Positions 42,069 to 51,508 of a DNA stretch of 64,000 nt are shown here, one piece after another. The notes under the pieces are model-generated. The model did not search any database. It saw only the letters and a list, made by a program, of their open reading frames with translations, and was not told the origin of the DNA. This DNA comes from Moniliella sp. 'wahieum'. Taxonomy: Eukaryota. Location: NCBI GenBank assembly GCA_003971905.1, contig RSEE01000142.1, forward strand, positions 1 through 64,000, in the 5' to 3' direction. Each line of letters begins with the position of its first letter. Position 1 is the first letter of the stretch. A program made the translations under genes and the position numbers.

Positions 42069-42917
42069 TTTAGGAGAGTGTTGAGAGAGAAAAGGGCGAG
42101 TTGGTGGGAGGGAGAAAGCTGCGTTTGCGCCAGGCGAGCGCAGGGGTCGAGGGCTTTATAGCAGAGCTGGGGGTCGCTCGGGGGGGCAGGCGGGGCTGTG
42201 AACGGTGGGGGAGTCAGCGCTTGCGCTTGCGAGGCGAGAGATGCTGCCCAGGTGCGGGCAGGGCGTGAATTGGCGGGGCGGATGCGGCTGGGAGGGCACG
42301 GCGACTGGGCTGTTGCCGGCGCAACCCCCGCTGTCCCCCTCCCCCCGCGCAGGCAAGCAGCAGAGTCCAACTCGAGTCGAGTGCCCAGTTCACCACTGGG
42401 CCTGCGTGCGGCCGCCGCCAGGGGAGGACCACCGAGGAGGGCGAGACACTCTTCCTCCCTGCTCCAGCGCGCGCTTGTGAACGTCCTGGAAGCTGTCCGC
42501 CAGCCCAACGTTCACACGTTCACACGTTCACAGAATCCCAGGCAGTGAGACATGCCTCCGTCGCACTCTGCCGCAGGGCCGGGGCCCAGCAGCGCGCCAT
42601 CATGCATCCTCCACCGTGCATCATGCATCGCTGGCCACCTTATAGCCCCGCCCTGCTGCAGCCTCCTGTCGCCCCCAACGCAACACGTTGTGAACGCGAG
42701 TGGACTGCAACGACTGACAAGCACCCGCTGTGAACGTCTCGAGTCGATGTGAACGCGTGGCCGACGGCCTGCACGACTGACGCGCTGGCACGCCTGGTGG
42801 CCGCCCAACAGCTCGAGAGGGAGCCAACGCAGCCATCCATATATACCCACGCCTCCCTAGCCATTGGGGCCCCCTTCCCCCTTCCCCCTTACCCTCTTCT
42901 CTCTCGTCTCTCTCACT
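42069..42917. promoter_or_regulatory. Bidirectional H4/H3 promoter with 8 TGTGAACG motifs
   Basis: Motif at 42197, 42476, 42689, 42729 and 42748 (+), and three tandem copies at 42509-42532 (-). TATA-like boxes near 42155-42160 and 42839-42845. Confidence 0.75.
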
Positions 42918-43390
42918 ATGGTACGTGTCTCCGGCATCTCTGCTGGATTCTTTCGCGGCAACTAACCGTCTTTCCCTCCTAGGCCCGTACCAAGCAAACC
43001 GCACGCAAGTCCACCGGTGGCAAGGCGCCGCGCAAGCAACTCGCGACCAAGGCCGCGCGCAAGTCGGCGCCGTCGACGGGCGGAGTGAAGAAGCCGCACC
43101 GCTACCGTCCCGGTACGGTGGCGCTGCGGGAGATCCGGCGGTACCAGAAGAGCACGGAGCTGTTGATTCGCAAGCTGCCCTTCCAGCGCTTGGTGCGGGA
43201 GATTTCGCAGGACTGGAAGACGGATCTGCGGTTCCAGTCCTCGGCCGTCATGGCGCTGCAAGAGTCGGCCGAGGCCTACCTTGTCTCGCTCTTTGAGGAC
43301 ACCAACTTGTGTGCCATCCACGCCAAGCGCGTCACGATCCAGCCCAAGGACATTGCCTTGGCCCGCCGGCTCCGTGGGGAGCGCACGTAA
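42918..43390 (+). CDS. HHT1: Histone H3 (S75, W78 substitutions)
   Basis: ATG, then intron 42921-42982, then [34 protein letters not shown]...[23 protein letters not shown]...RGERT*. Confidence 0.99.
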
Positions 43391-43922
43391 GGCCTACCCC
43401 GTCTAGGTATGCACACCTTACGTCCCTCCCGCTGTACTTTACCATGTACAATACATGTTCTCCCCGGAGCTTGTCCTGTTTCCCTATTGGTCCCGTAGTT
43501 GGTCCCTGCGCGTGAGCAGCAGAGCCTGGTTGGAGCCAGATGGGAAGCTTGAAGGGAGACCAGAGGGCAGAAAAGTCTTTTGTAAAAGATGAGGATCGCA
43601 ACCCTCGGTACCTCTCAGCCTATTAGTTTCCGTTCCCCGCCACCTACTCCGTACCAACTGCGTACTTCTGGGCAAAGCTGCGGGCGGCGACGAGCGAGAT
43701 CTATAGCAGACAAGCGGGGGGTGGGGGTTGCGTAATGCATCCTGGACTAAGTCCCGCCGTGCACGTGAGGGGTAGGTGGGAGATGGATAGCGATGCGAAA
43801 GAGAGCGCAGGGGGGGGGGGGGGGAGAGAGGGACTTGGGCCCGCCTTGCGGGTTACGGGTTACCACGGAGGCTGTCGGGGAAAGTGCGTCCCAATCGGGC
43901 GGGGCATGGGGCTGCAAACCCG

Positions 43923-47948: not shown

Positions 47949-48572
47949 TTAGGCCGCGACCTTCTTGGCCTTGGGGGCCTTTGCCTTGGCGGGCTTGGCC
48001 GACTTGGCCGTCTTAGCCTTGGAAGTCTTGGTCGTGGTGGCCTTGGCTTTGGGAGCGGCCTTGGTCGTGCTGGCTTTCTTAGTGGTGCTCGACGCCTTCT
48101 TGGCCGTCTTGGTCGCCGCCTTCTTGGGCGCAGCCGCCTTGGGTGCCGCCTTCTTGACGGCGGCCACCTTGGCGGTCGGAGCAAGCTTCACCTTCCCTGC
48201 CGGGCCCTTGGGGAGAAGGAACACGTTCTTCTCGGCTCCCTTGGCGATGGCGCGCGAGATGAGACCGCTAAAGGTCGCTGCAGGGCGCGCGGCCGTGGCG
48301 GGGTGCTTGGCCTGGATCCACTTCTTGAGCAGCGGACGCGACAGTCCGACGCGCGAAGCTTCGGGATGGGCAAGGATGGCCTCCTTGATCATCTCCTGCA
48401 GGCGGGTACAGTTGTTAGTTGCGCTTGCTCACGAACCGGGGCAGGGTGGCAACCGCCCCCTATCTTTTCCCATTTTCACCCGGTCACGCGCAGCGCGCAG
48501 GGGTGGCAACAGAGCACGTACCTCGTAGGATGGCCCTTCGGGCTTCTTGGCAGCAGTCTTGGCAGTAGGCAT
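47949..48572 (-). CDS. HHO1: Linker histone H1
   Basis: MPTAKTAAKKPEGPSYE, intron 48396-48521, then EMIKEAILAHPEASRVGLSRPLLKKWIQAKHP...LPKGPAGKVKLAP and a K/A/P-rich tail. About 165 aa. Confidence 0.95.
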
Positions 48573-51508
48573 GGTGGTGGGGGATCGGGTGGTGGGGAGG
48601 GTGGTGGTGGTAGTGGGGAAGGGGAGGGCGGGCGGGGGACAGAGGGAAAGAGAGCGGGTCAGGTGCCGAGGGGTATATGTGCCAGGGAGGGAGATGTGTC
48701 TCAGATGGAGCTGTGTGCTAGTTGGGGCTCGAACTGATTGGGCAGATCGGATTGCGAAGCGCCGAGGCTGGCTCAGGTGGGAGGACATTTGTGAACGTCT
48801 CCCTTGGAGGACCCGTGTGCGTGCAACAAACGCACCAAACTCGCTCCGAGTGGCTTATTACTTACCCAGCACACGCGCTCCAGACGCTGGGCATCTCTCG
48901 CCCGCGCCACGGGGCACAGTCGCTGCCACCTACTAATCAACCACTCGCAGAATGAGCGCCCAGGCTCTCAGAAGCTACAAGAAGTACGACCGGCACCCGC
49001 GCATGGGGAGAACTGAGAGGAAACCACTGCTAGTAGGATGGGGTGCGTGTTTTGGCACAGGGCATCTCTCCTTAGGTAGTCGAGTCTAGCAGCTGCCTCG
49101 CCCGCCTCTCTCGCAGCGCGTGCTGTCCAATACGCCGACCGCAGCAAACCTCGGTCTTGGCGCTGTTTCTGCAATGCATCGAAAGCGGGCGTCTCAATCT
49201 CATCGTTGCTGGCCAAAAGCCCATACTCCTCGAGGAGAACAGCAGCTCCAGGAGGTGCTTCTCCAAAGCAATTCCAACGAGGTTGGCATGTTTATTGGTT
49301 TAACGTTTAACCCGGCACATTGTGTTTTAGTGCGCACCATAACCAACCAAAGTGTTCAAATCACCAATCACGAATCACCCGAAAATCGTAGCAAACGGTG
49401 AACGCAACCCACACCTCCGCCTCCGCCCCAATGGAAGACGGAAACCCACACTCGCCTGTGGGAGCTGGGACGACGACATCGCGCCCGCCGTCCCGCGCAT
49501 GCAGAGAGCCGTTCGGAGGATCGAGGGAGGCGAAAATGACACGCAGTGCGGCCAAAACCTCCGTCGCGTTGCACACATTGAATCCGTGTGGCATGCCGCT
49601 CTCCCCTCGAACTCGTGAGCAATCCCACAAGAGCGGAAACGCGCCAACAAACCCCTGCCATCAGCACGTCTCGAGTTCACTCTTGCACCATCCGGCCGGA
49701 ATACGCAGGCCTACTCGATGACCCGATAGATTCAAGACGTGTCAGGCGTCCAGCGTCAGGGGGACGGGTCGGGGCTGTATGACCAGATACACGTTATGGC
49801 CTAGCCCGCCGAGCCACAAAAGATACGGTCGAGAAGCGTACCAGGTGCCCCAATTCGTTCTCGCCGCGGTGGTACCAATGACCGTGTCTGTGTGAGCGAG
49901 CACAATACACGCCCAACGGCCCTTCGTGACATTGTCAAGGCCACCTCAACCCGTACGGTTACCACCCTAAAAGAAAGGTGACGAGGGGCATGAAGTGCCA
50001 CTCCCCCGGTGGCCCCACACCCATGGAGGCGAATACAAAACCCAGCCACCACAGGGCCGAGCGGGAACTTGAACAGGCCCTGCAGTGCCCTGCGGTTCAA
50101 CCCGCCTCGACCACGGCTGGACGCAACTGGCATCCTCTCTCCACAGATGGCACGTCGGAGTGGGTCCTGTCCCGCGGCCCGGCAGATCTTACCAGAGTGG
50201 GCCATTGGATCGCTCCCCGTACCGCTCTCACTACATGCTCCCTCACCGCCACCAGCACGTTCCTGGACCCGGCCATCCCCTCGAGTGAGATGCAGGCTGT
50301 GCTTATGGGATTAGGCATGGCTCTTGTCTCCATAGCCCTGCAGCTGTGCGAGCGCGACCTGCTTGTTTAGCCCCGTACATGTGCGCAGGATGGCGTTGCA
50401 AGCGGCTTCGCCCCGATGCTGGTCGAGTAGCAGGCGCGTTGTGTCGCTGCCGCCACGGATTTGCGCAACTGAGAACCTATAGCCGGGTGGCTGACGACCT
50501 GGTCATACTGGCAGGGTAGAGGGGCTCGACATGGCCACCACGGCTGAGCGTATATCCCAGACCAGCCGTGTGGTCGGTTCGGGTGTACAAGCCTCTGGGC
50601 AGAGACACGACGGGTAGCATTCCCGCCCCGCGTACTCTTGCTCAACGCCCATCACAACCGACTGGCCTCTCCCACAGGGCCGCTCTTCTCGTCCAGGCCC
50701 ACTGTTCTGGGAGGAGGAGCAGCGATTGAGCCTTGTCAAGAACAGGCACTTGCTAAACGTGACGGGCTTGACCCACCTGTCAAGCTAAGTCAAAGACATT
50801 CGCCGCGCTCATTCGTCTGCCGGAAGCCTGCGGCTGTGCTCGACTGTGTGCTCTGGCGCATCCAGCGCGGCGTTGGCAAAGGTCCCTTGCGCTCCGTGGA
50901 TGGCATGCCGCCAGGTCAGGATCACCCATATGATTGTGAAGACGCCCATGGCCGCATCCAGTTTGAAGTGTTGACCGTCGTCTCCTTGTGGGGTCGGCTA
51001 GGCTCGGGTGCCTTTGATTGGGCACAAAGTGGCTGTTCGTTGGGGTTGGGTCCAAATCGGTCTAGCACGGCGCTTCCTGCAGCTGCAAAGCACGGTTGCT
51101 GCCACTCCCACATGTACGTGTGAAAGGCTTTCTATTGACTGCATCTTTTCCCAATCTCCTACCGAAACTTCGCCCTCCATGCATCTCTCTCCACTTGTCC
51201 TGCGCCTTGTGTCCAACGATGCCTGTCACGACGATATAATCCTTTTGCGGTGGTCAGTGGGATGGATGGCGGTGTATACTCGTACTTGATACGGATGTCA
51301 GCCGCTCCTTCCCCGACCAGTTTCCAGCTCAAGTCAATCTCTCCGCTCTCATCTTCCTTCCCCACCACATGGACCCCTCCATCCCCCTACATCGGCTCAC
51401 ACCAGCAAAGGTGGTCCTTCTTGTGATCAAAGTGTTTTGTGGCGTGGGAAGCCGCGAAAAATCAGAGTCCATGGCGGGGCCAAACAAGGAAAGTTTCTTG
51501 CAGCAAGC

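Follow-up and report, generated by a model that had tools for sequence, protein, structure and literature searches.

A locus of Moniliella sp. 'wahieum' raises the question of whether one 8-bp word could place the core histone genes H3 and H4 and the linker histone gene H1 under common control, and through which factor. The locus lies on contig RSEE01000142.1 (assembly GCA_003971905.1), of which positions 1 to 64,000 were analysed; this 64,000-base stretch is called the window. The word, TGTGAACG, had been singled out in an earlier annotation made from the bases alone (the sequence-only reading) as a candidate cis element of the divergent H4/H3 promoter and the H1 promoter, and as a possible undescribed basidiomycete histone upstream activating sequence (UAS). 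Histone regulators outside the budding and fission yeasts are left unidentified in the published account (PMC10917516). The present analysis suggests that TGTGAACG is a real, probably functional and apparently undescribed element of a known kind, resting on one locus.

Exact search on both strands recovered nine copies in the window, compared with a mean of 1.75 and a maximum of five in 100 dinucleotide shuffles, none of which reached nine. Eight of them are located in the H4/H3 divergent promoter, five forward and three in reverse tandem, as had been counted before; they make up six independent sites, one triplicated, and the triple is probably a single site amplified by slippage. The ninth lies about 6 kb from this promoter and 218 bp upstream of the H1 ATG (given earlier as about 220 bp). 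No exact match was found in the window outside histone upstream DNA, in agreement with the sequence-only reading. Markov backgrounds of order 1-5 predict 0.011-0.023 copies per 850 bp. With the tandem triple counted once, at least six sites would arise with P <5e-7, corrected for all 8-mers and windows, and the sole outside copy would fall within 300 bp of the H1 ATG by chance with P ~0.005. These values are to be read beside five other 8-mers that also attain 6-7 dispersed copies per 850 bp in the window, three of them in telomeric or subtelomeric repeats, one in a repeat within the reading frame of PIF1 and one in a stretch rich in the 7-bp scars described below. In this window, TGTGAACG is present far above chance and confined to histone promoters (9/9 copies), the pattern of a lineage-specific histone element.

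The identity of the H4, H3 and H1 genes was confirmed by translation and Pfam, whereas the intron positions of H4, H3 and H1 are predictions from splice signals (Table 1). The H4 and H3 ATGs are separated by 970 bp, or by 849 bp if measured from the predicted H4 intron donor, which bears out the size of about 850 bp reported earlier. All eight promoter copies sit between the TATA-like boxes of the two genes, and the orientation of TGTGAACG relative to the gene is variable. Copies in either orientation occur 37-150 bp beyond TATA-like boxes. The base after the core is a pyrimidine (Y) in 8/9 copies, the flanks being otherwise unrelated. No other repeated word able to act as an activator was found in the H3/H4 promoter. 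Patterns for forkhead (0 RYAAAYA), Swi4/6 cell-cycle boxes, heat-shock elements and plant hexamers or octamers are all absent from it, and its two CCAAT boxes and a loose Mcm1 pattern occur at the window rate. The 10-bp word CTCGAGTCGA is found twice in the same promoter (42371-42380 and 42738-42747) and nowhere else in the window.

Table 1. Histone genes, TATA-like boxes and occurrences of TGTGAACG, numbered from the first base of the window.
Feature	Position	Strand	Evidence and remarks
Histone H4, intronless coding sequence of 103 aa	41636..41947	-	translation and Pfam Histone
Predicted intron in the H4 5' untranslated region (GTGAGT ... CTAAC ... AG)	41950..42068	-	splice signals only; ends 2 nt before ATG
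H4 TATA-like box (TATAAA)	42155..42160	-	sequence; function inferred
TGTGAACG copy 1	42197..42204	+	exact match; 37 bp upstream of H4 TATA-like box (nearest copy)
TGTGAACG copy 2	42476..42483	+	exact match; sole copy inside a near-complete Spt10-type site
TGTGAACG copies 3-5	42509..42532 (starts 42509, 42517, 42525)	-	perfect head-to-tail triple, 8-bp period
TGTGAACG copy 6	42689..42696	+	exact match; overlaps ACGCG
TGTGAACG copy 7	42729..42736	+	exact match; 12 bases (TGTGAACGTCTC) in common with the H1 copy
TGTGAACG copy 8 with MluI cell-cycle box	42748..42758	+	perfect ACGCGT at 42753-42758; 85 bp upstream of H3 TATA-like box (nearest copy)
H3 TATA-like box (TATATA)	42840..42845	+	sequence; function inferred
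Histone H3 gene	42918..43390	+	translation, Pfam Histone; predicted intron 42921-42982 right after ATG
Linker histone H1 gene	47949..48572	-	predicted exons 48572-48522 and 48395-47949; PF00538 Linker_histone, E 9e-16
H1 TATA-like box (CATATA)	48674..48679	-	followed by CCC, same context as at H3; function inferred
TGTGAACG copy 9	48790..48797	+	exact match, H1 upstream DNA; ~112 bp upstream of H1 TATA-like box
One-mismatch variant, GGTGAACG	49397..49404	+	825 bp upstream of H1; chance level

The clustering between TATA-like boxes, the unlike flanks, the presence of both orientations, the copy at H1 and the absence of the word from the promoter of POL1 (see below) make a histone-associated cis element the best reading, as had been proposed. 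Because the core is exact, the flanks differ and a pyrimidine follows in 8/9 copies, a protein-binding site fits better than duplication. That TGTGAACG is functional in some way is very likely, and an activating role, whether through a lineage-specific factor or through an orthologue of Spt10, is probable. More tentatively, TGTGAACG(Y) may activate histone genes as an element that is present in several copies, works whichever way it faces and is recognised by a lineage-specific factor other than Spt10, a reading that we favour even though it falls somewhat short of probable. Under such a model, one sequence-specific factor, probably particular to the lineage, would bind the words of 8-9 bp one at a time and regardless of their orientation. 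From their place between the TATA boxes of H3 and H4, the six sites would activate both genes bidirectionally and to the same extent, and the single site would put H1 under the same control at lower strength. Histone expression driven in this way would most likely peak in S phase.

Several points weigh against this proposal. The evidence comes from one locus of one genome, and activation and repression are indistinguishable from sequence alone. There are 36 one-mismatch words in the 64-kb window and none in the H3/H4 promoter, which is stricter than most factor sites; such invariance also fits recent copying. In addition, the overlap with the half-sites of Spt10, given that RTTCNC is contained in 1.2% of 8-mers, would favour the Spt10-based explanation.

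According to that explanation, which we consider possible but unlikely, TGTGAACG is a version of the Spt10 UAS with one site instead of two and is recognised by a host Spt10 orthologue (GNAT plus H2C2 zinc finger), and dimers would link any pair of words that lie close together. The yeast Spt10 UAS reads [G/A]TTCCN6TTCNC, and full-length Spt10 requires two sites (PMC1807970). On the reverse strand of TGTGAACG, CGTTCACA contains the core of each half, RTTC and TTCNC; RTTCNC is as rare as stated above and TTCNC is contained in 3.1% of all 8-mers, the latter half-site being present in 9/9 copies by construction. The job and layout also resemble those of the UAS of Saccharomyces cerevisiae, which is multi-copy, central in a divergent histone promoter and present in both orientations (PMC1807970), and close and inverted pairs of TGTGAACG with spacings of 19, 33 and 40 bp exist in the H3/H4 promoter. 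Moreover, published BLAST searches have recovered an SPT10 from Cryptococcus (PMC10732044) and from 85 Aspergilli (PMC6900853).

Nevertheless, the S. cerevisiae element is a 16-bp two-part site (PMC1807970), whereas an exact 8-bp word is seen here. None of the nine copies forms a full RTTCCN6TTCNC site, the two-part spacing being absent. The best Spt10-type match, on the minus strand at 42477-42492, has 8/9 specified bases and would be expected by chance for one copy ~30-36% of the time. In the flanking positions, TG and CG do not vary at this locus but are free in yeast, and H1 has one exact site, yet two are needed by full-length Spt10 (PMC1807970). The comparison was also made post hoc and among several motifs. 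The Spt10 mode of control has been dated to 320-380 million years ago, within the budding yeasts (PMC10917516), and a Cryptococcus spt10 deletion grows like the wild type (PMC10732044). In Aspergillus, putative Spt10 matches are described, most of them scoring below the yeast sites shown (PMC6900853). No H2C2-type zinc finger was found in the window. By its bases, TGTGAACG is not classed as an Spt10 histone UAS. The sequence-only reading had stated that the word differs from the known histone boxes. This is correct for the AACCCT box of Schizosaccharomyces pombe, since the AACCCT/TTAGGG core has 0 copies in 42069-42917, and half true for the Spt10 UAS, as the two-part spacing is missing while the likeness to the half-sites had been overlooked.

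A further form of the Spt10 explanation, in which TGTGAACG resembles an ancestral single-site target, the two-part yeast UAS is a later doubling and H1 belongs to the same regulon, appears doubtful. If it were true, Spt10 histone control would reach the basidiomycetes and predate its proposed origin within the budding yeasts, and the TGATC-type words of ascomycete H3/H4 promoters would be sister forms with a TGAWC core.

It is less likely still that TGTGAACG is a repressor site, comparable in function to the NEG/HIR element of yeast, that silences histone genes outside S phase. A histone-only distribution is equally compatible with repression, and histone promoters of budding yeasts do have a negative element (PMC1794435). 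However, a repressor would leave the promoter with no alternative repeated activator word that we could find, and its many copies stand mid-promoter, as Spt10 sites do and unlike NEG, which is found closer to the start codons (PMC1794435).

Neutral spread of one word, whether by slippage, short local copying or a scar process, seems improbable as well. The window does contain an unusual 7-bp scar pattern, consisting of TNA, a 4-bp palindrome and TNA, of which 70 units were counted against 1.8 in shuffles. Seven of the 70 are TGA-ACGT-TGA, and TGA-ACGT lies within 6/9 copies of TGTGAACG. Three of the nine copies are in tandem, and two degenerate scar-like words (CATCATGCATC) occur in the H3/H4 promoter. 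Yet the word itself does not match the scar pattern: none of the 70 exact units is located in that promoter, no copy of TGTGAACG has another TNA 7 bp further on, and the period of the tandem is 8. The scar-type TGAACGT mostly follows T or A, not G. Finally, the flanks of the dispersed copies are unrelated, both orientations occur among them, and the ninth copy stands at H1, 6 kb off. As a separate observation, three perfect MluI cell-cycle boxes (MCBs) are spelled out by a scar array at 4828-4851, which lies upstream of the reading frame for the PIF1 helicase, and part of an MCB cluster in the POL1 promoter has the scar form TCA-CGCG-TCA. Because the array at 4828-4851 spells three such boxes, the scar process may give rise to G1/S sites or multiply them.

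The POL1 promoter also served as an internal control for the proposal that MBF (Mbp1/Swi6-type) reads TGTGAACG as a variant G1/S site, which we regard as very improbable. POL1 is the gene for DNA polymerase alpha (Pfam DNA_pol_B), and its promoter (58251-58550) has the top ACGCG cluster of the window, with seven in 300 bp and 0 copies of TGTGAACG; plain MCBs are thus in use there without the word. All copies of TGTGAACG contain ACG and 2/9 are overlapped by ACGCG, among them the one whose overlap with an MCB at 42748-42758 had been pointed out before and was found again, but the other 7/9 are without it. Since the H3/H4 promoter has three ACGCG against 2.2 expected from the window rate, which is background, the MCB overlap carries little weight, and together with the MCB-rich POL1 promoter devoid of the word this indicates that TGTGAACG is not a general G1/S box. 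Likewise, it is scarcely credible that TGTGAACG is a core-promoter element like HomolD (CAGTCACA), with which it agrees at 6/8 bases, as closely as 0.85% of 8-mers do, since the invariant AGTCAC core (PMC4138321) is broken to GTTCAC, all three genes have TATA-like boxes, the copies are numerous and at variable distance, and HomolD belongs to another gene class, the ribosomal-protein and snoRNA genes, and to another position (PMC4138321).

The preferred reading of TGTGAACG as a lineage-specific histone activating element has precedents elsewhere. Multi-copy lineage-specific histone elements are described for budding yeast (Spt10), Hanseniaspora (Mcm1, PMC10917516) and fission yeast (AACCCT, PMC5128866). 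The S. pombe AACCCT box (Teb1, Ams2) is similarly a near-invariant word common to histone promoters, but it has no sequence likeness to TGTGAACG and extends over 17 bp instead of 8-9 bp (PMC5128866). The Mcm1 mode of Hanseniaspora shows that a lineage can replace its histone motif, although it differs in sequence, has a known factor and rests on tested sites (PMC10917516). Motif turnover between lineages is documented for histone genes (PMC1794435), and for this reason TGTGAACG is unsurprising in kind.

How far the word extends among other fungi was followed in several collections. In supplement 1 of PMC6900853, which covers 85 Aspergilli and five other fungi and of which the first 400 characters were examined for most promoters, GTGAACG and its complement are absent from the parts examined. 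GTGATC and its complement occur there 49 times, versus two for GTGAAC and its complement, these being homologous and not independent sequences. The Aspergillus H3/H4 promoters have many TGATC/TGATY words, which are GATA-like (PMC6900853 supplement 1). The complete Agaricus bisporus H3/H4 promoter of 230 bp in the same supplement contains no copy of TGTGAACG. The term 'basidiomycete' histone UAS used in the sequence-only reading is accordingly too wide, and on present evidence TGTGAACG does not appear to be basidiomycete-wide at H3/H4.

A metagenome scan for H4 was read for the best 80 of at least 513 confirmed loci (at least 597 candidates). By residue signatures we take 75 of these 80 to be animal-, plant- or protist-like and five to be fungal. 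None of the five is a smut relative with enough upstream DNA to be used, and the one basidiomycete-like contig (L049) has just 100 bp upstream of the ATG. After 12 loci were dropped, the 68 with at least 400 bp upstream gave three copies of TGTGAACG in 62,775 bases, with 1.9 expected; two adjacent copies in L102 are treated as chance. H4-anchored scans of viral contigs (19, 15 and 10 loci) and prokaryote genomes (four) yielded ten H4 that were read, none of them smut-like. The fungal H3/H4 promoters of L054, L059 and L065, which are related to each other and presumably Taphrinomycotina-like, have no copy of TGTGAACG. Another exact 8-mer, TGTTGATC, was picked by eye in them before the shuffle test and is found 2, 2 and 3 times, respectively, with 0/500 shuffles in each case. 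It is mirror-oriented close to each TATA-like box (L054 5332-5828, L059 5312-5824, L065 5322-5815), and TAAACA words are above shuffles in two of these three promoters. Both words fit a forkhead consensus.

Among the open-access papers listed, none was found to describe TGTGAACG as a histone element, and the same literature yielded no histone-gene cis element for any smut-related fungus. As an exact 8-mer with six sites, TGTGAACG is a ready bait for finding the histone factor. It also allows testing whether Spt10 control is older than thought, and it would aid the design of bidirectional promoters for basidiomycetes.

The likeness of the window's arginase to named proteins, at 79% to Tilletiaria anomala, 74-75% to Tilletia and 71% to Ceraceosorus, places the host with the smut-related Exobasidiomycetes; a homologue search with H4 gave no placement. 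Residues 87-90 of the H3 are SAVM, as in the H3s of Ustilago and Puccinia, and the H3 paired with H4 is reportedly the S-phase form in Ustilago maydis. The H4-paired H3 of the window carries Ser75 and Trp78 beside Lys79 (residues 75-78 at 43205-43216) in place of the near-universal Ala and Phe. A Trp at 78 was met in one of 120 homologues among the matches listed (P0298) and in 0 of 53 H3 matches in the fetched loci; a single sequencing error is unlikely, because Trp needs two base changes.

Besides H1, no gene was recognised by eye among the open reading frames of 48600-51290, and Rfam gave 0 matches in 41000-50500. The reading frames of POL1 (53326-58390) and PIF1 (5359-7459) shift frame several times, owing to introns or assembly errors. 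At positions 1-820, the window opens with CCCTAA telomere repeats, which give way to subtelomeric repeats, ~60-140 bp long, in which telomere words are embedded. Between H3 and H1, at ~44060-45470, lies a gene for a Pcl/Pho80-type cyclin (Pfam PF08613), and a second cyclin is located at 33592-34605.

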